59,020 nt of DNA. Origin: a virus. Lineage: Duplodnaviria; Caudoviricetes. The notes under the pieces were generated by a model. It made no database searches, had not been told where the DNA came from, and worked only from the letters and a program-made list of their open reading frames with translations. Location: positions 1 through 59,020 of the IMG/VR virus record IMGVR_UViG_3300034094_000170; one strand, given 5' to 3'. Each line of letters opens with the position of its first letter. The stretch's first letter is position 1. Of the stretch, positions 4,094 through 56,875 are shown piece by piece. A program made the position numbers and the translations under genes.

Positions 4094-4095
4094 AA

Positions 4096-10256: not shown

Positions 10257-11002
10257 TATGAACCTGCTCCGTTAATAATAGTCCAGCCGCCATTTAATCC
10301 AACATATAAAACCGACGCTGTTGTATCAATAAAAAATTCCCCTTCAAAGTTAGGACTAATATTAATTGAATCAGGTGTATTATAATCTTTTCGCACCCTA
10401 CCAGATTTAATAGTCCATTCAGTTGCAGTGCTAGTATATTCAATCAATGAATCATAAGTATTTACAATGCCATTTTCTTTCCATAAATAATTGATTCCTG
10501 GTAAGGGTGGTGTACCAGTCGGTCGAATGTTCGATACAATCACGGATGCTGATTCAATGGTCATTCTACCTGTTGTTATTGTGTTAAGTTTCACAATAAT
10601 GGGTTCATCAATGGCTTGTGTTGATGTAGCATTCCAAACAAAAAATACAGGAGGTTTTCCGGTTTCACTCAAGCAATATAAAACCTCTGTGCTAGGGGTT
10701 GTATATGCTTTTAACGCCGCTAAAGTTGCAAATTGTATCATTTCAGTTACATTGTTATTATTGCCGTCAGTGTTGGATGTAGAACCCGCTAAAACTATCC
10801 ATCTCCCAGGGCCGTTAGCGGGATATGATGTTAGATTATCAATGTTTTTGGTGCTGTAACGTCTCCAAACAACAATTTTATAATCATCGTTATTTGTTGG
10901 CAAAATAAACGGCCCTAGCATATCTTCATCAGTGTCATCAACAGTGAAGTTTAGCATTTCAGCAGTATTAACAAATGCTCTATTAGCTAAAAAATTGGGC
11001 AT
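10256..11002 (-). CDS. Tail fibre/spike head-binding-like protein
   Basis: FATLAALKAY, GPGRW and FFIDTTASVLYV..GGW resemble tail-spike N-terminal modules. Confidence 0.55.
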   Translation of the reverse strand: MPNFLANRAFVNTAEMLNFTVDDTDEDMLGPFILPTNNDDYKIVVWRRYSTKNIDNLTSYPANGPGRWIVLAGSTSNTDGNNNNVTEMIQFATLAALKAYTTPSTEVLYCLSETGKPPVFFVWNATSTQAIDEPIIVKLNTITTGRMTIESASVIVSNIRPTGTPPLPGINYLWKENGIVNTYDSLIEYTSTATEWTIKSGRVRKDYNTPDSINISPNFEGEFFIDTTASVLYVGLNGGWTIINGAGS

Positions 11003-11119
11003 TTATTTTCTTAAATATAATAAATCGTTTTTATTTTTTAACAAAATGTCATACTTGACAACATTTAATAATCTTTTTGATTGTTCTAAAGGTCTGAATG
11101 CAAATTTAATAGTCATAAT

Positions 11120-11380
11120 TTAACCCACAACATTGTTTTGATAAATCATAAATTTCTGATTCAATCTACTAGCAGTATGCTGATTATTATTATCAGCTTC
11201 AATAACATCACCGGATTTGGTTTTAAACTTTTGTAATCCGGTGTCAGGATTAAAACCTTCATAAGTTACAGGTTTGGTGCTATTAGCGGTAGAAGCCGAT
11301 GGAATAGTCAAACCAGTAGACAAAGGTTTACTATTAAATCGGTTTTTTGCTGACTGATATCTGATTGAAGAAACACTCAT
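11120..11380 (-). CDS. Small tail-cluster protein
   Basis: 86-aa ORF 3 nt downstream of 11384-13639. Confidence 0.5.
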   Translation of the reverse strand: MSVSSIRYQSAKNRFNSKPLSTGLTIPSASTANSTKPVTYEGFNPDTGLQKFKTKSGDVIEADNNNQHTASRLNQKFMIYQNNVVG

Positions 11381-11383
11381 TTT

Positions 11384-13639
11384 TTACTTAAATCCTAACC
11401 AGTACAATTGTGAAAGTATAAGGGATTCAGTATCTCTCAACTCTATGGTAAACCCAGACGCTAAATAAATCAATCTATTTTCAGGTTCATCAATGTCAAT
11501 CCTTTGGAGAGGTTTAAAATTAGTTTCAATCCAATACTGTGTTAACGGTTGCACAATTTCATAACTAAAACTTTTCCCTTGACGCATAAAATAAATAATT
11601 TCACCAATACGTCTGAGAACTGTTGCATTATCAACAACACCAATACTCACAAATTCCCTTGGTGGCTTATAAATATTGGGATAAGGAAATTCCCATGTAT
11701 GACGGTCAACAATAATTTTATTTTTATATTCAGGTTCTTTTACAGCATTAGCTTCATTGTTAGGCATGTTTTCAGTTGGTGGTGGTGCAGCTTCACCCGT
11801 TCTACTTAAAACTTGATTCTCTTTATCAGTATCAGAAACTAATGTTAACCTCTGACTTTTTGTTACAAAGTTTTTATCAACCCAATCAAACCAACTAGCA
11901 ACTATAACATTATCGAGTCTATCAGATATGACCATATAACCGGGATATAATACAATACCGTTAAATTCTATAACAACACTACCATTACCATCTTGTATTT
12001 CTGTTAGTGGTTTAAAAACCCTAACTGATTTTGAAACTGCTGCCATGTTTGGTCTATAAACAATAGTACCGTTATAAACATTATTAACATAAGGTTGTTC
12101 AGCATTCTTTTTTTCTCTTAAATAACTATCATTAGCTTCAACTGCCGAACTATATTTAGCTTCCAAGGTTGCTTTTGATGTTTTAGTGTGACGTTCATTT
12201 TTTCCATTTTTTACCCACTCCTCAGTCTCCATTTCAGTGATAGCATCTTGATAATCAAAACCCGCACTAAGGTCATCACCATTAAAACTTGTTAATACTT
12301 TAGAAACAGGTTCCCACACTGTTAACACCGTTTTTCTAAGTGTTTTATCTAAATTATAATGATAGGTTTTCCATTCTTTTCTTGATTGATAAAAAGCTGT
12401 AGAGAATCTTGCTTCATCAGCAAAACTTGAGATATTACCACCTTCACCAGTACCAGATATAGAATTTGTAATATACCAATCTAAATGATTATTATACCAA
12501 CCTCCAAATATTCTACCCCAAGGCTCTTTAATAATAGTTTCCTCAAAAACTAATCTATTTTCATTTTGAGTATCAAATTCCTGTCTCTGAACTTTTTGTA
12601 AAACTTTTACCATATCCATTTTATCTTTTCCGATAACATCGGGATATAACAAACCCATTCTTTCATGTCTGATTGTAGTGACAACTTTAATCAAAGCACC
12701 TGAAACAGTCCTAGTGGTTTTTTCACAAACACTTTCAGTTGATAAAATGATACTATTTCCAGAATTTAAACCCAAAGCATAATCTAAACCCTCACTCTGA
12801 GAGTATGTACAAAAACCATCTTCACCGTTGGTTGTATCCTCAGAATCAGGTACTATTTCAGGGATTTCACCAGTCACAATCAATTCAGAGAGTGGAGAAT
12901 CTTGACCCGTTGGTTGATAAAGTTTTTCATCTCTACCTATTTTTAAATACAAATCCATTGCCGGGGTTTTAACATTTATTTCAGCTATATTAATTTTTCC
13001 ATTTTCATCAGAATATAATTGAGATGGTGAGGTTGACTTAAAACATAAATCACCACATGATGCTATCAATCCTGATGGTGTCCAGGGTAAATTAACATTA
13101 GTTGTAGGCAATACTTGACCTGCGTTCATTTGTATTTGTAGCTTCTGAAATATCTTGGAAACTATTTGTGAAACAGTAGTTTTACCCTTCTTTTCCCAAT
13201 CTGACCACCATTCATCTATAACAGGTTTCTTGGTATCATTAGGGTCTTTTTCAGGGTTTTTCCAATGGTCTAAACTATATTCTGAAAGTAATCCTAAAAC
13301 ACAAGTCACAGTCAAGGTTAAAATTTTACTCTCTGGATTATACGGGTTAGCATTTTTAATATATAATTTTGGTAAAATTCTAGGCTTAACAAAATCACCG
13401 TTATCATCCTCTACTAATATTTCAACAGGTGTTCCAAACATCCAACCCGTTCTATTTTTACGATTATCAACAGTTGAAGGGTTGCTATCAATATTGGCAA
13501 TATCAATGGTTCCTGAAAAGGTACACAACCCTTCCATAGAAAACTCATCCCATGAACCTGATAGTGAGATGAAACCAGGATAAACAGAATTGTTTTTTTT
13601 AAATAAAGTTTTTCTTGATTTGGTTAAAGCTAAAGTCAT
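11384..13639 (-). CDS. Tail hub/baseplate-like protein
   Basis: 751 aa; first minus-strand gene downstream of the tape measure gene; promoter motif upstream. Confidence 0.55.
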   Translation of the reverse strand: MTLALTKSRKTLFKKNNSVYPGFISLSGSWDEFSMEGLCTFSGTIDIANIDSNPSTVDNRKNRTGWMFGTPVEILVEDDNGDFVKPRILPKLYIKNANPYNPESKILTLTVTCVLGLLSEYSLDHWKNPEKDPNDTKKPVIDEWWSDWEKKGKTTVSQIVSKIFQKLQIQMNAGQVLPTTNVNLPWTPSGLIASCGDLCFKSTSPSQLYSDENGKINIAEINVKTPAMDLYLKIGRDEKLYQPTGQDSPLSELIVTGEIPEIVPDSEDTTNGEDGFCTYSQSEGLDYALGLNSGNSIILSTESVCEKTTRTVSGALIKVVTTIRHERMGLLYPDVIGKDKMDMVKVLQKVQRQEFDTQNENRLVFEETIIKEPWGRIFGGWYNNHLDWYITNSISGTGEGGNISSFADEARFSTAFYQSRKEWKTYHYNLDKTLRKTVLTVWEPVSKVLTSFNGDDLSAGFDYQDAITEMETEEWVKNGKNERHTKTSKATLEAKYSSAVEANDSYLREKKNAEQPYVNNVYNGTIVYRPNMAAVSKSVRVFKPLTEIQDGNGSVVIEFNGIVLYPGYMVISDRLDNVIVASWFDWVDKNFVTKSQRLTLVSDTDKENQVLSRTGEAAPPPTENMPNNEANAVKEPEYKNKIIVDRHTWEFPYPNIYKPPREFVSIGVVDNATVLRRIGEIIYFMRQGKSFSYEIVQPLTQYWIETNFKPLQRIDIDEPENRLIYLASGFTIELRDTESLILSQLYWLGFK

Positions 13640-13704: not shown

Positions 13705-15003
13705 ATGCAATCACTCAAATCAAATTTAATTTTTAATCCACAAGGAAATGATGATGTAAACCATCGGTCAATATGGAAAGGTGAAACCACAAATTTAATG
13801 CAATTAAATGATGTGCGTTATTCCTGGGCTGTTAGTTTGTGGAAACAAATGAGAGAGAATTTTTGGACAAGTGAAAAATTTGATGTCACTCAAGACATTA
13901 ACGATTATCAAAATTTAACACAGCATGAACAGAAAGGTTATGATGGGATACTATCATATTTGATATTTTTAGATTCAATTCAAACGGTCAATATACCACA
14001 TCTAAAAAGTGTTATAACAGCACCAGAAATAAGTCTATGTATGTCAGAACAAACATCTCAAGAAGCTTTACATTCACAATCATATCAATATCTTTTGGAA
14101 AGTATTGTCCCAACTGAAAAACGCAATATAATTTATGATTTTTGGAGGACTGACACATTGCTTTTTGAACGTTGTGAGTTTATATCTTCAATGTATCAAA
14201 AATTTGTTGACACATCAACTGAAGAATCTTATTTTGAGGCGTTGATGGCTAATTTTATTTTAGAAGGATTATATTTTTACTCTGGCTTCTGTTTCTTTTA
14301 TTCTCTTTCTTCTCGAATGTTAATGTCTGGTTCTGCTGATATTTTTCGTATGATTAACCGTTAATTTGTGGCGGCTTTTTACAGCAATGTAAATCGAAAA
14401 CCCCTCTAATTTAGGGGACATCTCAACTGAGACAATCCTAAGCCAATTTAATAATTTATATTATTAAAAGGTTCAACGACTAGCTGAGAAGCGTAGGGTC
14501 AAGTGACTCGAAACGGGGGGCAACCTTATGGGTTGGTGATATAGTCTATTCTAATAGGTGACTATTAGCAGTTTTAAAAAACGGGCAAAGATTAACGAAC
14601 TTTGTTGAATGTATAGGATGAATTATCTCACGTCCGGTTATACCAAAAAATCATACCTAAAGCTATGCAAACTTTTCCACATTCAATAGAGCGAATATAT
14701 GAAATGTTTGATAAAGCTGTAAAATATGAAATCCTTTGGGTTAACCATATTGTCGGCAATGAAATACTAGGAATCACTGAACAAAGCACAGAACAATACA
14801 TCAAATATTTAGCTAACATTCGATTAAAGTCAATTGGTTTACAACCGTTATATAATAAACCAATTTACTTTAAAAACTGTTATGCTCATCTTGAAAAAAT
14901 GGCAGATACAGGAAAAGATGCTAATGTAAAAGCTAACTTTTTTGATAGTGGTGTTACCAGTTATGTGATGTCATCTGGGGTGAGTGGTTGGGAAGAATTT
15001 TAA
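13705..15003 (+). CDS. nrdB: Ribonucleotide reductase class I beta subunit, two exons (13705-14361 + 14617-15003; 347 aa spliced)
   Basis: FLDSIQ, QEALHSQSY (radical Tyr), LEGLYFYSGF; splicing restores the conserved INR|DELSH in frame; C-terminal NFFD..VTSY. Confidence 0.93.
14362..14616 (+). ncRNA. Group I self-splicing intron, 255 nt, no homing endonuclease ORF
   Basis: 5' exon ends in U (AACCGT) and can pair with GCGGCT (P1, U.G); core elements AATCCTAAGCC, GTTCAACGACTA and GATATAGTCT; ends in G before GATGAA. Confidence 0.9.
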
Positions 15004-15010
15004 TTATTTG

Positions 15011-15167
15011 TGTTATAATGATAATATGGTTTTGTTATTAAAACCATTGAATCGAAACTATTGTGTCATTAATATCAATCCTTTTTATGGATTGTGAATT
15101 GAAATTTAGAGTTTAGTGAGCCTCCCACCAAAAAACCCCCTAACTTTTTAGTTTTTGGGGTTTTTTT
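15011..15167 (+). CRISPR. Short-spacer CRISPR-like mini-array 1, with promoter and terminator
   Basis: TGTTATAAT (15011-19); stem ATGGTTTT/AAAACCAT + TGAATCGAAAC; 17 nt; stem CAATCC/GGATTG + TGAATTGAAAT; terminator 15130-15167. Confidence 0.65.
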
Positions 15168-18300: not shown

Positions 18301-21300
18301 GCTTGTTCAGCTTCAGATTGAACTTTTGACTGTTCTAATGTACGTTGGATATTCTCAACTTCTTTAGCTCTTAAAGCCTGTTCCTCACCTAATTTAGCCT
18401 GTAATATAGCTAAACTATTTTGTGCGCCTTGAACTGTTAACTCTCTAACTTTGGTTTCATAATCTTTGGCACTGATTAATTTATCTTCATGTAATTTTCT
18501 TATTCCTGCTAACTCTTGCTGTCTTAAAACTTCTTTTTGTTGTGCTGATTTTAATTGATTATCAGCATCAATCAAACCAATATCGGCTTGACTTGACCCA
18601 CCCATTATTTGTCTTCTGACTGACACTGATTGGGCGTTAGCATCTGATATATCAACTTTAGCTCTACTAATAGCAATCTCTCTATCAAGGTTTTCCTGTG
18701 CTACTCTAAAACGCTCTCTTTCTTGTTGTAAAAGTTGTTCTTGTAGTGTTGACTGTAAATCTAATGTGGTATTTTCACTCTCTCTGAGTTTTATTAACGC
18801 TTCTAAGGTTGATTTTCTGGCAATATCTTTTTCATCAGTTTTTTCTAACTCTGACTGTAATTTTTGTAAAGGATATTTTTCAGTATCAGAATATTTTTTA
18901 TAATTTTCTCCAACTTCACCACCAGAAGCCTTGAGCGTTCCGGTTAAACTATCAGCCATATCTTTAGATGCTTTCAGTTTTGCTTGTGTTGCAAAAACAT
19001 CTGCTCTCACTTGTTCTAAAGAGGCATTATTTTCAGCTTTAACATCAGTAGTTAAATTTTCTTTTAAGTTTTTGTTTATTGATTTTTTTATTTTAATTAA
19101 TGCTTTATCTGTATCATAAGAAACTTTTTCAAACTTAGCACCTATTTTTGATATATTAGTCAAAAATTGAGTCAATAAATCTGAACTACCCATTTGTTCA
19201 GACAACTCATCTAATTTTTCTTTATATTCTTCTAATTTAGCTATTTGTTCAGTTAATACTTTTTTTGGTTCATCTGAAACAGTGCCAGCTAAATCATCTT
19301 TTAATGTGGCAATAGTTGATGAAACACTTTCAGCAGTGCTATCAATATTAGCTAAACCTAAACTGTTATCACCAACTTTAAATAATTCAACATTACTCTC
19401 TAGCTGTAATACCTCTATTTGTTTTTTGATATCTTCAAGGTTTTTACCCTCAGCAGATTTAGCTTGTACCGTCAACTTACCTATAGCATCAGTTTTTTCT
19501 TTAGATTTAGCTATAATTAAATCTGAAGATGATAATATATTTTCTACATTAGTTGATAATGTTTTAAGTTCACCTGTACTAGCAGACTCTTTTACAGTTT
19601 TAGCGGTTCTTTTTTCTTTGATATCTTTACTTTTGGCAGTCCAATCTTCCATCCCTCTACTAAGGTTTTTAAAACCTGACACTTTATCAAATAAAGTGTC
19701 ATTTTTTTTATCTTCTTCTTGTTTTTTTCTTGCTAATTTAAAATTAGTAACATTTTCAGTTTTTGGTTTTTCTTTTTCACCTTTAGTTTCTATTTCACCT
19801 CTCAATTTAGCCAGTTTTTCTCTTAATTCATCAGCTTTTTTACCTGCTTCGTCAAAATTTTTGGATAGATTTTTATTTATTACATCACCTTTAGTTTTAG
19901 ACATAAAGGTGTCAAAAGCAAAATATAAAACTTCAACAGCTTTTGATAAAGCATAAAATATCAAAATTTGTGGAGCCATCGCCACCAATTTAGGTATAAA
20001 AAATTTCCATATAACATTTCCAATTGTTAAAATCCTTGCCATTATAGCTTTGAGAGTAAATTCATTTTTTACTAAAGTTACTGTCAAAGTCCAAACTGTT
20101 TTTATATAATCTTTAAAAGCAACACCAACTGTAATAACTAAAATCCTACTCAATAAACCAGCATATTTAGCAACAGAATCCATTGCTTTTGCTACAACAT
20201 CTAATCCAACAGCAACCATTGGTAATAACGGTTTTCCTGCATTAACTTTTAATGCAGTTAAACTGTTATTAAACCTTGTCATTGAAGCTGTAATGTTTTT
20301 TGTAGAATCCTCAGCACCACCAGCAGTTTCAAGAGATAATTGTTTTGCAAACTTAGGTAGAAAATCTGTTGCAGCTAATTTACCACTATTTACTAAATCA
20401 TTAAAACCTTGTTCGGTCATACCCATCGACCGTGCCGCAATCTGCATCGCTCCAGGGATTTTTTCTGAGAGTTGCCCTCTCAGTTCTTCCATGCTCACGG
20501 TTCCCTTAGATGCAATTTGTGACATTGATAAAATTGAACCCTGAACCTCATCACCAGTTAAACTAAAAGCTGCGCCCGCTTGTGATATACCAGAAAAAAT
20601 AGCTTTTGTTGCATCACCTTCAAGAACAGTCCCTCTAGTTGTTGCTGCAAGTTTGTTCCAACCCGTTATAGCAGATTCAGTATCAATTGATAGTCTTGAA
20701 ACTTCAGAACTCAAAAAATCAAATGTTTTAGCTGCATTTTCATTACTACCTGCTATAAAATTAGTTACTGTTTCTAATTTTTGAAATCTTGCTGCCGTTT
20801 CTATGCAGATTTTACCAACACTTAAAAGTGCTTTTCCAAAAAATTCAAATATTCTATAAGAAATTCCGGCACTAAATAAAGCCTCAAGATTATCAGTAAA
20901 TGGTTTTAACGCAGGTATAGCTTGACCAATATTTTTAACTAATTTAGGTAGAAAATCAACCAATTGACCGATTTGACTATTTCTCAAATTAAAACGTCTT
21001 ACTGTAAAATCTAAAGATGGTTTTAATTCTTCAAATTTATCTTTTAAATTTTTAATATGTCTAGCAAAAAATCCTAAACCTTTACCAGAATCTTGTGCTT
21101 TTAAACCAAGAAAACTTGTAATACTAGCAACGGTTTTAGCTTGGCCTAAATAATTTTTTATTGCATGACCATCTCCACTGTCAGGAGCTACAACACCTCT
21201 AGTTTGTTTAACATTTCTACCCTTTCTTAATTTGGCTAAGGGGTCAAACTTAGCCATGTAACTACGAAAACCTTTAGATTGCTCACCGTTATTTCTTTGG

Positions 21301-45713: not shown

Positions 45714-45872
45714 ATTTCAATTCGCATCTCAATATTTTTTTAATATTGAGATGTTATCCTCATTTTTTACAATATTTCAATTTTCAATCCCTATTACTGA
45801 GTATTGTTACCCAAATATCAAAATATCGTTGCCTTATTTCAATTTTCAATCCCTATTAATTAATAGGGATTG
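45714..45872 (-). CRISPR. Short-spacer CRISPR-like mini-array 2, directly downstream of cas7
   Basis: Three stem + 11-nt handle units (AAAATTGAAAT twice, CGAATTGAAAT) separated by 29 and 20 nt. Confidence 0.7.
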
Positions 45873-45887
45873 TTTTAACTATTTCAA

Positions 45888-46748
45888 CTATTTGTCAACA
45901 CTCCAAAAACTTACACTATCTGGAGTATTATCGTAATCAATGGAAATATCATAATCGCTGATACTTCGAGGGATGTCAACATTTTTTTCAACTGACAACA
46001 TCTCAAACAATTTATGACTAGGATAATTACCCCATTTACTGTCATGGGTAAAAATATACAATCCTTGACAGTTCATTGAAGAACGGGCAGAGCTTTTATC
46101 AAATTCCCAACAATTAACAAGCGCATCCCAAAAAAGTTTTAAATCATCTTCAGAAACGTCGCCTTTATTCAAACCAGGATTGTAATGGATTTCAACCTTA
46201 AATAAACCATAAGGGATTAACTCTTTACGACCCATAGTTTTATTGTCCTTGCCCTCAGTTCCCTCAGTAGCGGCACATCGGGTAATTGTTGCTGAAATAG
46301 GCAATACAGGGTCAAACGAACGTCCCCAACTAACTTGTACTGGCCCCCAAACTTGTCCTGCTTTCCATCCAGTAGACAAAACGGCCCCAAACATCCGAAT
46401 ATCAAAATATCTTTGTCGTAGTAATGTCTGAACTTTTTCTTGTTCTTCTGGTGAACCTTCTTTTTTGTTACCTTTTTTGACACTAGGCTCAATCCCTAAA
46501 TCGGTGTAACCTTGGTCAATTTTGTTATTGAGGATACTACCTTCTTTAACAAAAATTTCATGGTTTCCAAGCATTTGAACATAGTTACGAATCTTGCGTT
46601 TAATACAAGCATCGGTCATTAAACCGTGTCGGGTTTCAGAATCGGTTCTTGGCTGATTTCCTGCGTCTGGGTCGCCATTAGGATTACCGTCAGTGCAATC
46701 AACTAATAAGATTGCATCATGTTTTTTGTTAGGGTCAAAGTGGTTCAT
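45888..46748 (-). CDS. cas7: Type I-C Cas7 (Csd2)
   Basis: GNPNGDPDAGNQPRTD, TDACIKRKIRNYV, FDIRMFGAV, GPVQ, TITRCA, TMGRK. Confidence 0.93.
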   Translation of the reverse strand: MNHFDPNKKHDAILLVDCTDGNPNGDPDAGNQPRTDSETRHGLMTDACIKRKIRNYVQMLGNHEIFVKEGSILNNKIDQGYTDLGIEPSVKKGNKKEGSPEEQEKVQTLLRQRYFDIRMFGAVLSTGWKAGQVWGPVQVSWGRSFDPVLPISATITRCAATEGTEGKDNKTMGRKELIPYGLFKVEIHYNPGLNKGDVSEDDLKLFWDALVNCWEFDKSSARSSMNCQGLYIFTHDSKWGNYPSHKLFEMLSVEKNVDIPRSISDYDISIDYDNTPDSVSFWSVDK

Positions 46749-46751
46749 GGT

Positions 46752-47126
46752 TTATTCTTCCTCTTGTTTGTTTTCAGTGTTTTGTTTAGTGTAAAATTCA
46801 GCCCGTCGCTTTGCAAATCCTATGAAAAACAAAGATTTTTGACGGAGTGAAAAATTTTCAGGTAAGTTTTCAGGATTAAATTCTAAAAACTCGGAATCTA
46901 AACAGTTTTGGACGTAAATCGTATTTGTTGCCGATTGTAGATGGTGACAATAACAACCTTGATACAATCGGTCAAATACTTGAAAAGGTGTTGTTGAAAG
47001 TGTTTTAAGAGAACGCAACACATTAGTATCTTCATTGTTTCCTTGATTACGTCCTTTTATTTGTGCAACGTGCATCAAGAAAGCAATCCGACCTAATCGG
47101 TATGCAATATCATCATTTGTTTCCAT
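46752..47126 (-). CDS. cas11: Cas11c small subunit from an internal in-frame start in cas8c (124 aa)
   Basis: In-frame ATG (METNDDIAYRLGR) after A-rich AAAGAAATCAAA; internal translation of Cas11 is established for type I-C. Confidence 0.65.
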   Translation of the reverse strand: METNDDIAYRLGRIAFLMHVAQIKGRNQGNNEDTNVLRSLKTLSTTPFQVFDRLYQGCYCHHLQSATNTIYVQNCLDSEFLEFNPENLPENFSLRQKSLFFIGFAKRRAEFYTKQNTENKQEEE

Positions 47127-48449
47127 TTTGATTTCTTTGATTGTTTGGTTGAGATAGAGCAAAAGACCTTTTACTCTGACAGCAAGAGAATAACTAAAAA
47201 ACTTTAGATTTTCCTCGCTATGGCATTCGGCACAGATTCTATCAATTAGTTTTTGAGCATATTCATCTGGTAATGTTTTACCCAAAAGAGTGTAATAAAT
47301 CAAAGCTGTTTCCACTCTTTGAGTGTAATCACCCGCATCAAAAAAAGCAGCTTTAATCAATGCGTAAATGGGCAAAACTTTACCATCAAGTGATTGTTGG
47401 ATTTCAAGAAAACGTTTGACATTTTCAGCTATTTCATCGGGAGTAGTTTTGTTAATCCCATTGATAGCAATCCTTCCAGCATTACCCTTTAAAATACCAA
47501 GGTAAAACTCAGATGAATATGCTCTGGTGTTTGCTGAAGTTTTACCTCCATAAACACTTTTGAAAAGACCTGAGAATTTTATTGATTCAGGGTCATTCCA
47601 AAACTCATCATTTATTCCCTCCTGATTGACATTTCCCCAATAAACAAACATCTGCTTATTAAGGGTTTGGTGATGATATGGGGAGTTTATTAAGTAGTCA
47701 AGTCCACTTATCACCCCCCATGCTGTATCAATCCCTATAGGCGCATTGTCATTACCTTTAAATCCCCATCCCTGATAGGCAGGTTTATCAAAAGATGTGA
47801 TTGATGCTCCAGTGCTATTGCCACCAGGGATATTTTTTATTTTTTCAGGGAAAACACTCAAAATAATTGGTTGTTTTTCCCCAGTGATGATACAACGTTT
47901 ATCATTCCAATCATCTAAATCTAAACGGTCAAGATATTCAAACCGCCAAAACTCTTGAATTTTTGGAGTGTCAGAAATTAGTTTTGGTTGCTCATCATCT
48001 CCTGTTGTACAGAATGCAAACCTCAACCCTTCACCCATTTTTTTATTAGGAACAGGTTTGCATCCGATTTCTTTGAGATGATTTACAACATCTTTTGTGT
48101 TAACGCTTTCAAGATAAGATATAATTTTGGAAGTGTTAACGTCTAACGTCTTCTTGCAACATCTATGCAGCAACTCCAAATATGCTGCATATTTTTTTTT
48201 ATCCAAACCTAAAACGTATTCACCAACATCAACAATCAAGATAGGAACTGTCCCATTTCTACTCAGTGATGGCACAATCATCCGTTTACCCTGAGTGCTA
48301 AAAACTTTATCCTTTTTGATTCTCTCTGTTTTTAATAATGTGATGGAATTGTTATCAACATTAATCAAAACATCAACTTTTTGAGTGGAATAACCTACGG
48401 GTAATTGCGGGTTTAATGTTTTAGAAAAATCATACAATTCTTTTAGCAT
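46752..48449 (-). CDS. cas8c: Type I-C Cas8c (Csd1)
   Basis: CIITG, GASITSFDKPAY..WG, NAGRIAI, AYRLGR, FFIGF; lies between cas5 and cas7. Confidence 0.88.
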   Translation of the reverse strand: MLKELYDFSKTLNPQLPVGYSTQKVDVLINVDNNSITLLKTERIKKDKVFSTQGKRMIVPSLSRNGTVPILIVDVGEYVLGLDKKKYAAYLELLHRCCKKTLDVNTSKIISYLESVNTKDVVNHLKEIGCKPVPNKKMGEGLRFAFCTTGDDEQPKLISDTPKIQEFWRFEYLDRLDLDDWNDKRCIITGEKQPIILSVFPEKIKNIPGGNSTGASITSFDKPAYQGWGFKGNDNAPIGIDTAWGVISGLDYLINSPYHHQTLNKQMFVYWGNVNQEGINDEFWNDPESIKFSGLFKSVYGGKTSANTRAYSSEFYLGILKGNAGRIAINGINKTTPDEIAENVKRFLEIQQSLDGKVLPIYALIKAAFFDAGDYTQRVETALIYYTLLGKTLPDEYAQKLIDRICAECHSEENLKFFSYSLAVRVKGLLLYLNQTIKEIKMETNDDIAYRLGRIAFLMHVAQIKGRNQGNNEDTNVLRSLKTLSTTPFQVFDRLYQGCYCHHLQSATNTIYVQNCLDSEFLEFNPENLPENFSLRQKSLFFIGFAKRRAEFYTKQNTENKQEEE

Positions 48450-49090
48450 CGCACTACCCCATTTTTCATGATTGCTTCAAAATATTCAGGTTCAACATTA
48501 CCCTTTGTAATCTTTTTTTGTTGATGGTCAAACCATTGAAGCTTGCCTGTTTTACTAGGGTTAAAATTTATCTTTTTGAGAACTTGTCCAAAGTTAAACT
48601 CACCCAAAAGTTCGGGATGTACCTGTTCAGTACCATCAGGAAATTTAAAAGCACAAGCATACTCTTTAACACCCATACATGGTTGTTTGAAACAAGCACC
48701 TTGACTGATTCGCTTGTTTACGATGGCAAAATATTTATCAATTGGGTCTGTTGCCCTTTTAGTCAATTCCATGCCAAAATCAATGATGTAAGCAGGGTTT
48801 TTAAGAACAACAAAATTGCGCTGTGAACGGTCGTCACTGATGATGTAATGTTCTTTGTCGTAACTACTGGTAACGATTTTACTCTTACCCATATTACGAA
48901 AAAAAGAAGCGTATCTGATTGGATTCAGAACTGTTATACTGTTGACCGTATACTCGATTTCCGGTTTCCAGAAAATCGCCTTTAGGATTCCCTCTGCTGC
49001 ACTAGGAGTGAGAAAAGGATATGAAAATGGGTCAGCTTTTGTTTCGGGTTTTGTGAATAAACCATACTCGCCCCACACTTTTAATTGCAT
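48443..49090 (-). CDS. cas5: Type I-C Cas5 (Cas5d, crRNA-processing)
   Basis: KVWGEYGLFTKPE...SYPFLTPSAAEGILKAIFWKP, VLNPIRY, GACFKQPCMGVKEY. Confidence 0.93.
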   Translation of the reverse strand: MQLKVWGEYGLFTKPETKADPFSYPFLTPSAAEGILKAIFWKPEIEYTVNSITVLNPIRYASFFRNMGKSKIVTSSYDKEHYIISDDRSQRNFVVLKNPAYIIDFGMELTKRATDPIDKYFAIVNKRISQGACFKQPCMGVKEYACAFKFPDGTEQVHPELLGEFNFGQVLKKINFNPSKTGKLQWFDHQQKKITKGNVEPEYFEAIMKNGVVRC

Positions 49091-49304
49091 AGGTTTATAT
49101 TTTTAATTCAGTATTTCAATTCGGTTGTTTGCTCTTACTGAATTAAATATACCAATAAAAAGCTAGTTGTAAACATATTTTAGTTTTGATTTTTATATCA
49201 AATAACAAAAAACTTATAAGTTATAATCATATATTTTAATGTTGAAAAATCACATATTTAAGTTAGGATTATCAATTATCTATGTCAAAATTTAGGAAAC
49301 AAAA

Positions 49305-51389
49305 ATGGAATTACACGCCAGGAGATTTATAGTTAATGGTAAATTTATTACACAAGATTTGATAGAGCATCTTAAAGGTGTTGCCAACAAATCAAGTGAT
49401 AAATTTAAAAATATTTCAGTTGATTTAAAAACATTAGCTTTTTATGCAGGGCTATTACATGACGTTGGAAAAGCTAAAAAATCATGGCAAAAATATATGT
49501 TTAAAAAATCGTGGGAAAAACATCTAACAAAAAAATCAGATAAAAAAAAATCAAAAGTTGAAATGGTTTTCCACTCATCAGAGGGTGCTAGAGCTATCAT
49601 GGAACTGTCAGGTGATGACTACCACCCGCTTGCATGGATTATTCAAGCGCATCACACAGAGTTAAAAAACCAAAGTGATTTAGGAAGTGATTATTTTATT
49701 GAAAATTCTAAACATTGGAAAACTTGCCTTGACCGTGTTTTTCCTGGGTTTGATATCAATAAAATTCCAAAATTAAAATTAAATATTTTAAAAAAAGAGT
49801 TGGCAATCAGGATGTTGTATTCAGTTTTAGTTGATTCTGATAGGCTTGATGCTCAAGAATTTGAAGAAAGATATTATAAAAACGTTGTTACACATAAACC
49901 ATCTATCTTGACTGTCTGTAATATATGGTCAAATATACCAGTACCACCACCGGAAAACACTTTGGTATCGGTTGAGCGTAAATATTTTAGAGATATTGTC
50001 AGTGGTTATATCAAAGATAAAAAAACCTGTTACCGATTAATTGGTGCTACTGGAGTAGGAAAAACACTTACATCACTCAACTTTGCATTAGAGCATTGCA
50101 AATATCATAATATGGATGGATTGATTTATGTTGCTCCGTACAAGTCAATCATTGACCAAACTGCTAAGATATATCGTGAATTGTTGAGTGATGATGCTGT
50201 TTTGGAACATCACTCCGATTTTGTACCTAAACCTAAAGATGAAAATGATTATAAGTTATCTTGCCAAAGGTGGGATTATCCGGTGATAGTTACTACTGCG
50301 GTACAATTTTTTGAGTCAATATTTTCTAACAAATCTACCCGATGTCGCAAGCTTCAAGGATTACTCAATAAGGTGATTTTGATTGATGAATACCAAACTA
50401 TTCCACCTAATTTAATTGAATCAATTGCCGATATTTTAAAAAATTTAGTTGAAGATTTTGGATGCACTGTAGTTTTAATGTCAGCTACAGCACCAAATTT
50501 ATCGGGTTTTAATTTACCCCATGTTGACATGATTCCACAATCAGAAGTAAATCGTCAATTTGAAGTTTTGCAGCGTTGTGAGTATGAATTTAAGGAGTTT
50601 GATTATCAAGAAATAGCTAATTTTCCTGGTAAAAAACTTGTAATCGTAAACACCACGAAAACAGCATTAAATTATTTTCAATATTTTGATAGTGTCCAAC
50701 CGGGACAATGGCTACACTTATCATCTCGGATGTGTGTTTCACATCGTAAAGAAGTGATTAAAAAATTAAAAACTGGTAAATATAATTGTGTCAGCACTCA
50801 GATTGTGGAAGCAGGGATTGATATTGATTACCCCACAGTTTTTACAGAAGAATGTCCTTTTGATTCATTGATTCAACGTGGTGGACGTTGTAATCGTGAA
50901 GGTAAATTACCGTCAATGGGTAAAGTTTTTATCATCCCTTGCAGCAATTATCCTGGTCAAGAATACAGACAGTTGGCAATTACAACATCTAATTATATTT
51001 TAAACCATAAAGGCTTTAAACCTGATGAATTGGTTGGCTTATTGAGTAAATATTTTAGTGTGAGAAATTCTAATATTTCATCTGAAATTCAAGATTTAAG
51101 AAAGAATTTAATGTTTAAAGATGTCAACGATAAATTCAAAGTGATTGAGGATGGTATGCCTAATGTTTTATGTGAATGGGGTGATGGAATACAATTAATT
51201 AATCAGTTAAAAAATAAACCAAAATTGACACCTAATGAATGGAAACAATTACAACAATTTACTGCAACAATTTTACCCAAGGATGATAATTTTAAAAATG
51301 TTGTAGAATATGATAATGGTATGAGAGTTTGGAATGATGGATATGATGATAATTTTGGAGTATATATTCAAACTTCATATATTATTTAA
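49305..51389 (+). CDS. cas3: Cas3 HD nuclease-helicase
   Basis: EHL, LLHDVGK, HS, HH, LVDSD (HD domain); ATGVGKT, IDEYQ, MSAT, STQIVEAGIDID, QRGGRCNREG (helicase). Confidence 0.93.
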   Translation: MELHARRFIVNGKFITQDLIEHLKGVANKSSDKFKNISVDLKTLAFYAGLLHDVGKAKKSWQKYMFKKSWEKHLTKKSDKKKSKVEMVFHSSEGARAIMELSGDDYHPLAWIIQAHHTELKNQSDLGSDYFIENSKHWKTCLDRVFPGFDINKIPKLKLNILKKELAIRMLYSVLVDSDRLDAQEFEERYYKNVVTHKPSILTVCNIWSNIPVPPPENTLVSVERKYFRDIVSGYIKDKKTCYRLIGATGVGKTLTSLNFALEHCKYHNMDGLIYVAPYKSIIDQTAKIYRELLSDDAVLEHHSDFVPKPKDENDYKLSCQRWDYPVIVTTAVQFFESIFSNKSTRCRKLQGLLNKVILIDEYQTIPPNLIESIADILKNLVEDFGCTVVLMSATAPNLSGFNLPHVDMIPQSEVNRQFEVLQRCEYEFKEFDYQEIANFPGKKLVIVNTTKTALNYFQYFDSVQPGQWLHLSSRMCVSHRKEVIKKLKTGKYNCVSTQIVEAGIDIDYPTVFTEECPFDSLIQRGGRCNREGKLPSMGKVFIIPCSNYPGQEYRQLAITTSNYILNHKGFKPDELVGLLSKYFSVRNSNISSEIQDLRKNLMFKDVNDKFKVIEDGMPNVLCEWGDGIQLINQLKNKPKLTPNEWKQLQQFTATILPKDDNFKNVVEYDNGMRVWNDGYDDNFGVYIQTSYII

Positions 51390-51642
51390 TTCCGACAACC
51401 TAGAGGTGTACAGCTAACAATGTCTAAAAAATAGTCTACACCTCTCACCACACAACCCTTTGAGCGATTCTAACTTAAAAATAGGTTGGCGGAAACGCTA
51501 GAATACTTATGGGTAAACATTTTTTGATGATTATTACTAATATCCACTTGACAAATAATGAATACATTTGCTATTATTAATTCAGGTTGTCGGAATCAAA
51601 CCTTGAAAACTAAATATATCAAGGGTTTGAAAAGCAATGCAA
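51390..51642 (+). promoter_or_regulatory. CRISPR leader with promoter
   Basis: TTGACA(51548)-18 nt-TATTAT; inverted TTCCGACAACCT/AGGTTGTCGGAA; CCTTGAAAACTAAATATATCAAGGGTTT next to repeat 1. Confidence 0.75.
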
Positions 51643-52119
51643 GTATCAACTCCTAGCAATGGGAGTTGCGAATTGAAACATATCGGTGTTCGAGTTGTTC
51701 CCCCTTGCTCACCTGTATCAACTCCTAGCAATGGGAGTTGCGAATTGAAACATCACCTATGAGCAAAAAATCGATAATGCTATTCAAGTATCAACTCCTA
51801 GCAATGGGAGTTGCGAATTGAAACGCGTGGCTTGGCTTGCCTTGCTTGGCTGTGAGAGAAAAGTATCAACTCCTAGCAATGGGAGTTGCGAATTGAAACA
51901 AGCCTTCCTGAACACTGCCAACAGCCCCAATGTAAGTATCAACTCCTAGCAATGGGAGTTGCAAATTGAAACGATTTGTTCTATGTTGGTAATACTATCA
52001 GCATTTAGCAGTATCAACTCCTAGCAATGGGAGTTGCGAATTGAAATAATTATCCGACGCGATACCAATGATGAAATATTTGGTATCAACTCCTAGCAAT
52101 GGGAGTTGCGAATTGAAAT
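51643..52119 (+). CRISPR. CRISPR array: 7 x 37-nt repeat GTATCAACTCCTAGCAATGGGAGTTGCGAATTGAAAC, 6 spacers of 35-38 nt
   Basis: Repeats start at 51643, 51715, 51788, 51863, 51936, 52011 and 52083; stem CAACTCC/GGAGTTG followed by an 11-nt handle. Confidence 0.97.
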
Positions 52120-52232
52120 CATGAATTGGTCATTAACAATCTCGTTTTTATCGAGATTGAGAATTGAAACCAATCATGGCTTGCAGACCATTTCTAAACA
52201 ACAATTAGAAATGAGAATTAAAATACGATAAT
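52120..52232 (+). CRISPR. Short-spacer extension of the array with two sequence-divergent repeats (mini-array 3)
   Basis: 17 nt, then CAATCTCG/CGAGATTG + AGAATTGAAAC; 18 nt, then CATTTCTAA/TTAGAAATG + AGAATTAAAAT. Confidence 0.75.
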
Positions 52233-53567
52233 TTGACACTCCCCGCTCTAAAGAGACGGGGATTCTTGGTTCACAGAGATTACTTGCTTAGACAGAATTG
52301 CTTCTGAAAAAGTAGAGGTATTCTCTCCCCAAGCGTTTATTGGGTCGAGCCCAAAGGTTCCGGTATGCCCTACCGTACTTAGTCCCCTTTTAAGGATGTT
52401 GATTGCGGCGTTTTCATCCCTATCCAAAACACATCCACACTTGCACTGATGGGTTCTAGTCGATAAAGATTTTTTGACAGTTTCACCACAGTTTGAACAG
52501 TTTTGGCTTGTATAGTTCGGTGCGACAGCAATCGTTATCTTGCCAAATTTAACCCCAAAATACTCTATCCATTCCCGAAACTGATACCAGGCCGCATCAT
52601 TTATCGATTTAGCTAGACAATGATTCTTGACTAAGTTCTTAACTCTTAAATCCTCGTAGGCTATCACATCGCTAGAGTGAACTACGCACCTTGCTAATTT
52701 CACAGCAAAGTCTTGACGTTGCCTACTTACTTTAAGATGAGCTTTAGCTAATCTTTGTCTAGCTTTTTGACGATTTTTACTTCCCTTTTTCTTTTTAGAT
52801 AATCGCCTTTGAAGTCGTTTTAATCGTTTCTCAGACTTTCTCAAGAATTGAGGATTATCAACCTTGTTGCCATTGTTATCTGTATAGAAAGAAGCCAAAC
52901 CTACATCTAAGCCAATACACTTACCTGATGGTTTAACATCTTCTTTAACGTCACAAGAAAGGACAAATTGACAATAATAACCGTCCGCTCTCCGAATCAA
53001 CCTAACCCGTTTAATATCGGATTCTTGAAAGTACCCTAAATCCCAAGTTCCTACCAACTTAAGAACACCAATGTTTTTCTTGTCAGTGAACTTAACAGTT
53101 TTCGGGCTAAGAAGCTTCCATCCTGATTGTTTGTATTCAACAGAGCGAGATTTTTTAAATTGAGGATACCCCTTTTTGCCTGATACTTTACGTTTACAGT
53201 TGTCGTAAAAACGACTAATTGAACTCCAAGCACGTTCAGCACTTGCCTGTCTAGCAGTTGAATTAAGTTCATCGGCAAATTTAAAGTCCTGAGCTAATTC
53301 TTTAGAATATCGGTATAAATCGTTCTTACCCGTACCTTTTGTATCCATCCATAACCTTACACATTTGTTACGGATGAATTGAGCAGTACGAATAGCATCG
53401 TCTATGGCTTGATACTGTTGAGTTTTAGCTTTAACTTTAAACTCTAAGACAAACATTTTACGCAGGGGGGACTTAGACAAAATCAGTATAGCACAATAAA
53501 AGTTAAGTTAACAAGCTATAGTTTAAAAAGCCGTCCTAAAAGGACGGGGCTTTAACCCAAAATTTCG
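52233..53567 (-). mobile_element. IS200/IS605-family element with tnpB only (IS1341-like)
   Basis: Right-end hairpin GAATCCCCGTCTCTTTAGAGCGGGGAGTGTCAA; left-end hairpin near 53530-53550, preceded by TTTAC; left boundary approximate. Confidence 0.8.
52248..53456 (-). CDS. tnpB: TnpB RNA-guided endonuclease
   Basis: RuvC motifs GLDVG, YEDL and DRDENAA; zinc finger CSNC...CKC; likely ATG at 53456. Confidence 0.92.
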   Translation of the reverse strand: MFVLEFKVKAKTQQYQAIDDAIRTAQFIRNKCVRLWMDTKGTGKNDLYRYSKELAQDFKFADELNSTARQASAERAWSSISRFYDNCKRKVSGKKGYPQFKKSRSVEYKQSGWKLLSPKTVKFTDKKNIGVLKLVGTWDLGYFQESDIKRVRLIRRADGYYCQFVLSCDVKEDVKPSGKCIGLDVGLASFYTDNNGNKVDNPQFLRKSEKRLKRLQRRLSKKKKGSKNRQKARQRLAKAHLKVSRQRQDFAVKLARCVVHSSDVIAYEDLRVKNLVKNHCLAKSINDAAWYQFREWIEYFGVKFGKITIAVAPNYTSQNCSNCGETVKKSLSTRTHQCKCGCVLDRDENAAINILKRGLSTVGHTGTFGLDPINAWGENTSTFSEAILSKQVISVNQESPSL

Positions 53568-53587
53568 GTAAAGTGAAAAAAGACGAT

Positions 53588-53623
53588 AAAAACCCCTGAT
53601 ACGTCTCTATACCAGGGGTTTTT
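53588..53623. terminator. Bidirectional intrinsic terminator (probably the original end of the CRISPR transcript)
   Basis: AAAAACCCCTG...CAGGGGTTTTT. Confidence 0.65.
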
Positions 53624-54598: not shown

Positions 54599-55780
54599 CT
54601 ACGTCAGAATTTGCTCAACCAGGTTTTCACCAAGAAGAGTAGAGACTCCAACTCCTGTAGCGTTAATTCGGGAATGCCCTTCCCTATTTTTAGCTAAATT
54701 CAGAATGTTAATTGCAGCGTTTGTATCTCTGTGCAACTCACATCCACAAGTACAAACATGGGTGCGAGTTGATAGAGATTTTTTCACAATTACCCCACAA
54801 TTAGAACATTTCTGTGAAGTGTAATGGGGTGGAACTGGTATTGCCAATTTATCAAATTTAGCTGCAAAATATTCTATCCATTGTCGGAACAAATACCAAC
54901 TGGCATCACTAATTGATTTAGCTAAACAGTGGTTTTTAACTAAATTCTTAACACTTAAATCTTCGTAGGCTACTACATCGTTAGATGTGCATACGTTACG
55001 CGCTAGTTTTTTAGCGTGTTCATTCCGTTGCCTGCTTACTTTTAAGTGTTTTTTAGCGTAAACTTTTCTGGCTTTCCGTCTTCCTGATGAACCTTTAACC
55101 TTTTTATAGATTTGTCTCTGAGATTTTTTAATCGACGTTTCCGCCTTTCTTAGAAACTTGGGATTTGGTTCTTGATACCCGTTAGAGTCTGTATAGAAAG
55201 ATTCTATTCCAACATCCAGTCCGATTTCCTTTCCGGTTTTCGGTTGAACATCAGTGACGGTAATATTCAGGCAAAATTGACAGTAATATCCATCAGCGCG
55301 ACGAATTAAACGAATCCGTTTAATATCTTTGACGTTGTAAGTATGGATATCCCATTTTCCTAAAAGTTTAAGTTCACCAATACCTTTTTTGTCAGTTATG
55401 GTAATTCTTCTTTTAGTGGGATGCAATGACCAACCCGATGTTTTATATTCAACAGAACGACAATCTTTCTGAAATCTAGGAAATCCTTTCTTTCCAGAAA
55501 CCTTTTTCTTACAATTTTCGTAAAAACGAGAAATTGCCGACCATGCTCGTTCCGCAGCAGCTTGTACTGCCATTGAATTTAAGTCTTTGACAAAATCGAA
55601 TTGTGAACGAAGTTCTGTAGAATACTTGTTTAAAGCAAATCGATTAATTTTGGTATCTTTAGGTGCGTCCATCCAATACCGAATAGACTTGTTTCTAATA
55701 AACTGTACCGTTTTAATCGCCTCATCAATCGCTTTGTACTGATGAGGTTTTGCTTTGATTTTGTATTCTATAACTATCAT
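54599..55780 (-). CDS. tnpB: TnpB RNA-guided endonuclease
   Basis: GLDVG, YEDL, HRDTNAA; CSNC...CTC. Confidence 0.92.
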   Translation of the reverse strand: MIVIEYKIKAKPHQYKAIDEAIKTVQFIRNKSIRYWMDAPKDTKINRFALNKYSTELRSQFDFVKDLNSMAVQAAAERAWSAISRFYENCKKKVSGKKGFPRFQKDCRSVEYKTSGWSLHPTKRRITITDKKGIGELKLLGKWDIHTYNVKDIKRIRLIRRADGYYCQFCLNITVTDVQPKTGKEIGLDVGIESFYTDSNGYQEPNPKFLRKAETSIKKSQRQIYKKVKGSSGRRKARKVYAKKHLKVSRQRNEHAKKLARNVCTSNDVVAYEDLSVKNLVKNHCLAKSISDASWYLFRQWIEYFAAKFDKLAIPVPPHYTSQKCSNCGVIVKKSLSTRTHVCTCGCELHRDTNAAINILNLAKNREGHSRINATGVGVSTLLGENLVEQILT

Positions 55781-55872
55781 TGATTCGACCTGTCAATGGG
55801 TTGTCTGTTTGCTACTATCAACCTTAACACAGTAAACTAGATTTGTCGATAAAAATATCAGAACAACCAAAT

Positions 55873-56283
55873 ATGAAACTGAAGTCTATAGATTACAAGC
55901 ATTACAACCACTCAGTCGGATTAGCTTGTGTCCACCTGGTTTGGATTCCAAAACGAAGAAAGCGTGTGCTAGTTGGAAACGTAGCAACACGCTGTCGGGA
56001 GATATTTTATGAATTAGCAATTGAGAAAGAATGGGAGATTAAAGCACTGGAGATAGCTCCTGACCATATTCATTTATTTATCTGCCATCAACCTAATTAT
56101 TCGATTAGTCAGATTGTGCAAGCTTTCAAAGGGAGATCGTCGTGTTACCTCAGAAGAGAATTTCCTGATTTACTGAAACTTCCTAGTTTATGGACTCGCT
56201 CCTATTTTCACACAACTGCTGGTAGTGTTAGCTCGAAAGTTATCATGGAATATATTAATGACCCCCATCACAGTACCCATTAA
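55873..56283 (+). CDS. tnpA: IS200-type Y1 transposase
   Basis: HLVWIPKRR, PDHIHLF (HUH), LWTRSYF, EYI (catalytic Tyr). Confidence 0.92.
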   Translation: MKLKSIDYKHYNHSVGLACVHLVWIPKRRKRVLVGNVATRCREIFYELAIEKEWEIKALEIAPDHIHLFICHQPNYSISQIVQAFKGRSSCYLRREFPDLLKLPSLWTRSYFHTTAGSVSSKVIMEYINDPHHSTH

Positions 56284-56366
56284 AAGACAGGCGCTTAAAA
56301 GCGCTGCTTGCCTTCATCCACGAACTGAAGTTACGTGGTTTTCGGCTCTGCCAATAATAAACTGAT

Positions 56367-56735: not shown

Positions 56736-56875
56736 AAAATTAAAATAGATGAGCGACTAACTAACAATACATAATTAATTATGTATTGAGAATTGAAATA
56801 GATGAGCGACTAACTAACAATACATAATTAATTATGTATTGAGAATTGAAATAATTATGTATTGAGAATTGAAAC
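56736..56875 (+). CRISPR. Short-spacer CRISPR-like mini-array 4 (53-nt tandem unit)
   Basis: [AGATGAGCGACTAACTAA + palindrome CAATACATAATTAATTATGTATTG + AGAATTGAAAT] twice, then a half repeat ending AGAATTGAAAC. Confidence 0.7.

Follow-up and report, generated by a model that had tools for sequence, protein, structure and literature searches.

A phage-borne type I-C CRISPR-Cas locus without linked adaptation genes and with a leader resembling those of cyanobacterial type I-D arrays

IMG/VR virus record IMGVR_UViG_3300034094_000170 carries a CRISPR-Cas locus consisting of cas7, cas8c and cas5c, a divergently transcribed cas3, a leader and a short array (Table 1). The window analyzed here is the entire record (59,020 bases, linear), for which CheckV estimates a completeness of 54%. 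With Cas5c, Cas8c, Cas7 and a Cas3 that combines an HD nuclease with a superfamily 2 (SF2) helicase, the phage locus has the type I-C signature. A preliminary description, made from the sequence alone, had claimed this gene content together with a motif-intact and divergent cas3, and both the profile scores and an alignment of Cas3 to the solved type I-C Cas3 (chain 8g9u_P) agree with it: the HD histidines/aspartate and the Walker A GxGKT, DExQ and QxxGRxxR (arginine-finger) motifs are all retained. Cas8c matches the solved type I-C Cas8c chains 8dej_I and 8g9u_H, while Cas5c matches 3kg4, 3vzi and 8dex; the record name of 8dex is 'pre-crRNA processing endonuclease' (crRNA, CRISPR RNA). The closest solved structures for Cas3, Cas8c and Cas5c are all type I-C. 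An in-frame methionine of cas8c (Met442, ATG at 47126-47124) is a possible internal start for cas11c, with a predicted C-terminal product of 124 aa; a clear Shine-Dalgarno sequence was not found before this ATG. No Cas6 family was identified among the 14 open reading frames (ORFs) scanned against Pfam and NCBIfam or the 34 ORFs scanned against PHROGs.

The locus is located between phage head genes (major head, scaffold and portal) and insertion sequence (IS) and replication genes. Genes encoding P22-type major head, scaffold, portal, head-decoration, neck, endolysin-like, ribonucleotide reductase (RNR) small subunit and primase proteins are found on both sides of it, and the record is clearly phage DNA. 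The G+C content is 28-37% throughout the window, whereas the closest three loci from metagenomes (L183, L184 and L196; G, L and X numbers are our own designations for genomes, loci or records, and metagenome runs) have 39-40%. A near-identical locus occurs in metagenomes of lakes and other freshwaters (20 runs, 14 studies), and no RNA dataset was among the listed holders of the locus.

Table 1. Features of the type I-C locus and associated elements in the 59,020-base window.
Feature	Position	Strand	Remarks
cas7 (Csd2), backbone subunit	45888..46748	-	PF05107 287 bits; TIGR02589 287 bits (cut-off 182)
cas8c (Csd1), large subunit	46752..48449	-	PF09709 216 bits (cut-off 27); TIGR01863 163 bits, under cut-off of 218.65
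cas5c (Cas5d), pre-crRNA endonuclease subunit	48443..49090	-	TIGR01876 101.5 bits (cut-off 85)
cas5c/cas3 divergent intergenic region, presumed promoters	49091..49304	.	weak promoter-like sites
cas3, HD nuclease and SF2 helicase	49305..51389	+	TIGR01587 and TIGR01596, both above cut-offs
CRISPR leader, 253 nt	51390..51642	+	motifs common to host leaders; promoter-like site
CRISPR array, 7 repeats of 37 nt and 6 spacers	51643..52119	+	start-to-start 72-75 nt; spacers 35-38 nt
Two degenerate units after last repeat	52134-52170, 52188-52224	+	15- and 18-nt separations; perfect stems of 8 and 9 bp, differing
Three units directly 3' of cas7 stop	45714..45872	-	two perfect 10-11 bp stems, one broken stem
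Two full units and one half unit	56763..56875	+	53-nt period; followed by terminator-like hairpin
Solitary unit 3' of nrdB second exon	15069..15105	+	6-bp stem and handle; followed by hairpin and T-run
TnpB-only IS element	52233..53566	-	NF040570 272 bits; adjoins array trailer; right boundary approximate; outside CRISPR system

The leader was assigned to the cas3 side of the array because the degenerate repeats are found at the far end: the last two (trailer) repeats end in T rather than C. The fifth repeat has one change. The main array and leader of the phage follow cas3, and not cas7 as in the host loci described below. A TG-extended, near-consensus promoter-like site (11 of 12 consensus matches) is present in the leader at 51548-51577, and the leader motifs quoted in the preliminary description are found at approximately 51483-51492, 51586-51598 and 51601-51630. 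The leader also contains a TTGGC motif ~155 nt upstream of the array; this motif stimulates acquisition in type I-D and has been likened to an integrase-anchoring site (Kieper 2019).

Canonical type I-C loci carry cas4-cas1-cas2 downstream of cas7, between cas7 and the array. In the phage, this position is occupied by ~170 nt of repeat-like units followed by the convergent portal operon. Searching the window with models for Cas1, Cas2 and Cas4 (PF01867, PF09827 and PF01930, respectively) yielded nothing, although the models did detect positive controls in 6-9 of the 14 reference genomes, so the earlier claim that the three genes are missing from the locus and window holds. Because the record covers only ~54% of the genome, their absence is claimed for the locus and window and not for the whole phage.

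The nearest relatives of the phage Cas7 are cyanobacterial: four unnamed sequences are 81, 80, 71 and 68% identical, the best named relative is a protein from a Planktothrix metagenome-assembled genome (MAG) (66%) and Nostocales proteins follow at 57-59%. A match was found in 13 of the 401 genomes sampled from the phylum, with the best in G249 (72%). Among the matches listed in a scan of genome contigs, most loci were non-cyanobacterial. Using tblastn, cas3, cas5, cas8c and cas7 were identified in each of six chromosomal loci, all of which also have an adjacent array, and the phage proteins were 47-66% identical to those of G249. The array begins a few hundred bases past cas7 in five of these loci and ~3 kb away, beyond cas1, in the sixth (G387, L149). 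Among the five host genomes searched with a Cas1 model, G387 alone has cas1 adjacent to the type I-C locus; in the other four (G249, G110, G140 and G044), each cas1 is either on a different contig or separated from the locus by more than 400 kb. The same gene order is seen in MAG locus L048, which lies beside housekeeping genes and in which a first repeat begins at the contig end.

The same four cas genes are also carried by two viral records that are unrelated by capsid (L001 and L002; 111 and 118 kb, 91% and 93% complete). Their arrays, located on either side of the cas genes, have 22 and 31 repeats (3764-5323 and 11078-13287), and the Cas1, Cas2 and Cas4 models had no matches in either record. 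An extra solitary repeat was observed ~7 kb away, around 20456-20492. Close relatives of the cas genes were found neither in a scan of viral contigs with Cas7 as the single protein nor in a scan of metagenome contigs with Cas8c, and a scan of viral contigs with a degenerate repeat pattern had no matches.

The usual type I-C repeat is ~32 nt in length, and the 37-nt repeats of the phage had been taken as those of a hybrid. This part of the preliminary description was not upheld: in all eight related cyanobacterial and viral type I-C arrays measured, including the one at the locus with its own cas1, the repeats are 37 nt long and end in ATTGAAAC. As the interference-only layout is likewise found in host chromosomes, both repeat length and layout are features of the lineage rather than of a phage hybrid. 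The interference-only design is inherited from a cyanobacterial type I-C lineage that is itself adaptation-less, with the phage having taken the arrangement over from host chromosomes instead of inventing it.

Over its array-proximal ~100 nt, the phage leader can be aligned with the leaders of 14 arrays from hosts or metagenomes, three of which adjoin type I-D Cas6-Cas4-Cas1d(-Cas2) genes. The resemblance to leaders of cyanobacterial chromosomal arrays, which the preliminary description had pointed out, is therefore real. All 15 sequences follow a common plan in which a promoter is followed by a G/C-rich short motif, an invariant core, ~20 nt and the repeat. The phage leader is 77-87% identical to sites in G249, with weaker sites in G110, G140 and G044. 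Using blastn-short, the identity of its array-proximal part is 90-93% (46-50 nt aligned) with three G249 leaders, including one on a contig encoding Cas6, Cas4 and Cas1d, and 85% (72 nt aligned) with the G249 type I-C leader. The leader-matching sites in G140 and G044 are located just downstream of type I-D operons, which encode Csc2, Csc1, type I-D Cas3', Cas6, Cas4, Cas1d and Cas2 in G044 and Cas10d, Csc2, Csc1, Cas6, Cas4 and Cas1d in G140 (with no Cas2 ORF among those scanned). The type I-C and I-D repeats have their first and last bases in common, both end in ATTGAAAC and have invariant 5' columns; in the measured arrays, script calls give 37 nt for type I-C repeats and 37-38 nt for Cas6-type repeats. 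The leader of the G387 type I-C locus, which has its own cas1, is unrelated. Based on these comparisons, the phage leader is a host-type, I-D-like leader that carries the motifs of Cas1-linked type I-D arrays.

We compared 420 spacers, taken from type I-C and Cas6-type arrays in the phage, in one viral record and in four host genomes. In G140, one of the 40 type I-C spacers (L146 11357) is identical (34/34) to one of the 42 type I-D spacers (L165 11248), and in G110, one of 19 type I-C spacers (L145) is a near-copy (25/26 aligned) of one of 21 type I-D spacers (L164 11185). Both pairs have the same start base after the repeat and the same orientation. Recombination is an unlikely source of these shared spacers because the flanking repeats differ, and the simplest account would be independent capture of the same protospacer by one machinery reading one protospacer adjacent motif (PAM). 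No spacer is common to different genomes among the 420, and an exact scan of viral contigs for the shared G140 spacer had no matches.

Of the 36 positions of phage spacer 4 (51900-51935), 33 match plasmid p2 of Planktothrix agardhii (NZ_LR882954.1); the mismatches fall at spacer positions 24, 33 and 35. The protospacer is inside a hypothetical gene; p2 also carries ParA/ParG, integrase, DUF4007 and PAPS-reductase genes, and the last two may be part of a defence system. A separate contig with the spacer-4 protospacer and plasmid flanks was present in four of the four metagenome runs examined, and in one run, other contigs match spacers 1 and 5. At least one spacer is thus aimed at a plasmid of the likely host genus, Planktothrix, and the use against competing elements proposed in the preliminary description gains some support from p2 and from the co-occurring contigs that match spacers 1, 4 and 5. 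No protospacers for the phage array, the G140 type I-C array or the L002 array were found in isolated phages. The comparison of the phage spacers with IMG/VR covered 47 viral loci. The phage spacers have no target in the window itself and only chance-level matches of 20-24 nt in the 401 sampled cyanobacterial genomes. Conversely, none of the 420 spacers is a convincing host spacer aimed at the phage (best match 20 contiguous nt, 29/45 overall).

On their 5' side, the three protospacers are flanked by GTC, ATT and ATC (two from metagenome contigs, and one with a mismatch at spacer position 1), and these do not give a single PAM. The PAM is GTN for type I-D (Kieper 2018) and TTC for the Desulfovibrio vulgaris type I-C system. 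A PAM inferred from type I-D was considered and dropped after ATT and ATC appeared beside GTC.

Taken together, we propose that this is an interference-only type I-C module of Planktothrix-like ancestry that is carried by a freshwater tailed cyanophage, aimed at rivals and supplied with spacers in trans by the Cas4-Cas1-Cas2 proteins of host type I-D systems, a reading to which we assign a probability of roughly 0.55. The phage encodes Cas5c, Cas8c, Cas7, a motif-intact Cas3 and a six-spacer array behind a strong promoter-like site. If it acts as known type I-C systems do, Cas5c would cut the pre-crRNA at the repeat hairpin, and Cascade and Cas3 would degrade spacer-matching DNA. The module would most likely be used against rival mobile elements in the infected cell, because spacer 4 hits a plasmid of the host genus and two more spacers match co-occurring contigs. 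Spacers would be installed by the host type I-D proteins as is apparently the case for the host's own adaptation-less type I-C arrays; we infer this step from the I-D-like leader block, the TTGGC motif and a repeat with the length and end sequences of type I-D repeats. The best indirect evidence for it is the sharing of spacers by type I-C and I-D arrays in two of the four host genomes.

Several observations weigh against this proposal. First, the similarity of the leaders could be plain ancestry, because the closest chromosomal type I-C locus, that of G249, has the same leader. Second, spacers are not shared in every genome: in G249 (15 type I-C spacers versus 99) and G044 (7 versus 22), none is shared with other arrays, and the six phage spacers have no match among the 414 other collected spacers, including the 15 of the G249 type I-C array. 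Third, one of the three protospacer flanks fits the type I-D GTN and none is the canonical type I-C TTC. Fourth, the short array and degenerate trailer also fit a static inherited array. Finally, with a record that is ~54% complete, phage-borne cas1, cas2 or cas4 genes could lie elsewhere in the genome.

The alternative that fares best is that the phage captured host-derived cas genes, a leader and a few spacers as a static module, with a leader that is similar through inheritance alone and an array that no longer gains spacers and serves as a fixed weapon or is decaying. It is favoured by the leader and layout already present at the closest chromosomal locus (G249), by an array of only six spacers with degenerate trailer repeats and by the IS elements that abut this array. 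We nevertheless regard it as somewhat doubtful. The four cas genes remain intact, the promoter in the leader is close to consensus and the spacers have matches in elements found together with the phage today; the lack of overlap with the G249 spacers (0/6 among 15) or any of the 414 others counts against this alternative as well. Furthermore, arrays of 22 and 31 repeats in related viral records that lack adaptation genes are hard to explain without acquisition.

A further observation, beyond those of the preliminary description, is that the window contains at least eight extra repeat-like hairpin units with differing stems. The handle motif AATTGAAAY occurs 21 times compared with five expected. 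Outside of the array, the looser motif AATT[GA]AAAY follows a perfect hairpin (6 bp or longer) in 8 of 38 occurrences (background 1.9%, P = 5.6e-7), although one of these eight, at 21028, looks like low-complexity chance. The stem differs in every unit while the flanking bases and handle are kept, and the stretches between units are 15-26 nt in length. The two units at 52134-52224 are outside of the adjoining TnpB element, in which homology starts at ~52233. A terminator-like hairpin is found ~20-30 nt past three of the units; after unit 52188-52224, such a hairpin can be recognized when the TnpB insertion is taken out, a state represented by the empty-site contig from run X2. Some units double as terminator-like hairpins for the opposite strand. 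A handle-like motif is also present at 49113-49121 (minus strand), within a 9-bp inverted repeat ~20 nt upstream of the cas5c start codon.

Similar elements were observed outside of the phage. Several unit handles equal host-type variants, and a 20-nt stretch (the 3' end of unit 52134-52170 and the next 4 nt) is identical to the 3' end of a G249 type I-C array repeat and the bases following it. At the site 3' of cas7, G249 has a two-repeat mini-array, L184 a single unit and L183 none. The 32-nt spacer of the G249 mini-array (L144 10403-10508, 10323-10354) matches the 3' end of its own cas7 at 27 of 32 positions with a CTC flank, which may represent self-regulation or a decayed self-spacer. The first phage pseudo-spacer after cas7 matches inside the phage cas7 at 22 of 26 positions and is mismatched near its 5' end. 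In two Nostocales-like type I-C loci (L189 ~5947-5984 and L191 ~10271-10308), a 6-9 bp hairpin and handle lies inside or at the 3' end of cas7. Eleven Planktothrix plasmid records (L182 14759-14804, L232 2501-2545 and nine more) have one solitary type I-C-like repeat each, which on p2 is followed by a terminator; these solitary repeats are candidate RNA anti-CRISPRs.

The units resemble Racr, CreR and Cracr RNAs, and candidate roles for them are decoy, regulator or debris. Racr (Camara-Wilpert 2023, PMC10651486) and Cracr/CreR RNAs (Liu et al., 10.1101/2024.10.29.618823; Shmakov 2023, PMC10120712) are likewise solitary or mini-arrayed degenerate repeats on viruses, with type I-C examples; the present virus differs in that it also carries cognate cas genes and in that no target was found. 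Racr mimics are defined as unassociated with cas genes, whereas here the cognate genes are on the phage and five units lie inside the cas-array locus. The search for Cracr explicitly excluded matches inside CRISPR-Cas loci. A CreR-type reading, which calls for a pseudo-spacer with PAM-proximal complementarity (at least ~9 nt) to the promoter of a cas or toxin gene, was not adopted since no such match was found in the window or eight related loci.

These units suggest a second alternative, in which the locus is primarily a counter-defence or regulatory device: the dispersed hairpins would act as Racr- or Cracr-type decoys or short guides against host type I-C complexes or would tune the phage cas genes, with cleavage secondary. 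The excess of perfect hairpins before handles, the varying stems with a conserved handle, the host-type handle variants, the 20-nt identity with the G249 array and the solitary repeats on plasmids are all consistent with this, as are viral type I-C Racr and Cracr RNAs on record, Cracr spacers being similar to the 15-26-nt stretches here. We consider it unlikely. For the pseudo-spacers, no target matching over 10 nt or more next to the PAM was found in the window or eight related loci, nor, within the sensitivity of BLAST, a convincing one in 41 G249-family genomes. In addition, the phage Cas3 is kept intact, and the units could be array debris, some of them doubling as terminator-like hairpins on the opposite strand.

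A third alternative, which places an adaptation module of the phage's own in the half of the genome that was not sequenced, draws on the incompleteness of the record but is improbable given the repeat-like units and portal operon at the canonical position past cas7, the same layout without an adaptation module in two viral records that are 91-93% complete and the unlinked cas1 in four of the five related chromosomal loci. That the record is a piece of host chromosome or a plasmid is barely credible, as the surrounding phage genes and the lower G+C content speak against it despite possible misbinning in IMG/VR and identical layouts in chromosomes.

Returning to spacer loading by host type I-D proteins, the observations on the host lineage and the units can be combined in a broader and more tentative reading. 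The type I-C lineage as a whole might have lost its adaptation genes and depend on the type I-D Cas4-Cas1-Cas2 present in the cell, with leader, repeat length, repeat ends and spacers in common between the two; the phage-captured effector might be armed by the host in Planktothrix and the stem-variant mimics might manage or jam host type I-C complexes.

Other features of the window were noted. The interval between the array and the primase gene contains two diverged TnpB genes (72% identity over 300 nt; 52233-53566 and 54599-56283) and an IS200-type TnpA. Homology of the first TnpB element with the second copy stops at ~52233, and the metagenome contig from run X2 passes from 52232 into sequence like that at ~53578-53600, representing an empty-site variant without the first element. 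Another metagenome contig joins sequence resembling the region 3' of tnpA (~56330-56358, compared by eye and unaligned) to the array interior at position 51860. Cover is missing over spacers 1-3 and 5-6 in two runs (X8 and X9), from which we draw no inference. A single ORF of 6,835 codons (15327-35834, minus strand) takes up approximately one-third of the window between the RNR genes and the neck and head genes. A group I intron (Rfam RF00028, 96 bits; 14352-14568, plus strand) splits the RNR small-subunit gene into exons at ~13705-14364 and ~14665-15003; it is the sole Rfam match in the window, and no CRISPR or other RNA family was matched in the locus.

Elements of this arrangement are already in print: interference-only phage CRISPR systems and cross-type borrowing of adaptation have both been described (PMC7162821 and PMC11656645). 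Like the phage systems without Cas1, Cas2 and Cas4 described by Al-Shayeb 2020 (PMC7162821), in which the median array has six repeats, the present one is phage-borne, with a compact array and no acquisition genes; that study also proposes the use of host Cas proteins. In the type I-C variant it describes, a different helicase replaces Cas3 and the phages are >200 kb, while here Cas3 is standard and motif-intact and the phage is roughly 110 kb (59 kb at 54%) and traceable to one particular host lineage and leader. Phages <200 kb rarely carry CRISPR-Cas (PMC11656645). Plasmid type IV-A systems, which are also mobile-element systems without adaptation genes, have been demonstrated experimentally to use host type I-E adaptation and target rival elements (PMC11656645); the corresponding case here is type I-C with type I-D, on a phage and inferred from sequence.

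Canonical type I-C systems (D. vulgaris, Bacillus halodurans and Neisseria lactamica) likewise have Cas5c, Cas8c, Cas7, Cas3, a repeat hairpin and the ATTGAAAC end. The phage locus differs from these in having no cas4-cas1-cas2 in the window, a divergent cas3, a 37-nt repeat and three protospacer flanks that are not TTC. The chromosomal type I-C loci of filamentous cyanobacteria (G249, G110, G140, G044 and G068) resemble each other and the phage in gene order and 37-nt repeats and have a common array placement, and G249 also has a phage-like leader and a mini-array after cas7. Compared with these loci, the main array and leader of the phage are 3' of cas3, and the divergence of its proteins from those of G249 is as given above. 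A literature search, which did not cover supplements, found no paper on the pairing of types I-C and I-D, on the host type I-C lineage or on a Planktothrix phage with type I-C.

How phage systems that lack adaptation genes are supplied with spacers is mostly a matter of conjecture. The locus described here is a concrete case in which the host genus has a name, the leader is defined, the target plasmid is known and there is a candidate for the donor machinery, and an acquisition assay in E. coli already exists for the candidate donor, type I-D Cas4-Cas1-Cas2. The compact, Cas3-containing module may also interest genome-editing work. The results point to a dependency, seemingly not described before, of one type I subtype on another in bloom-forming cyanobacteria. 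They also point to an arms race in Planktothrix with three participants: chromosomal type I-C systems, plasmid-borne repeat mimics and a CRISPR-armed phage. If the broader reading is true, the machinery of host immune memory would arm a phage against rival plasmids and phages.

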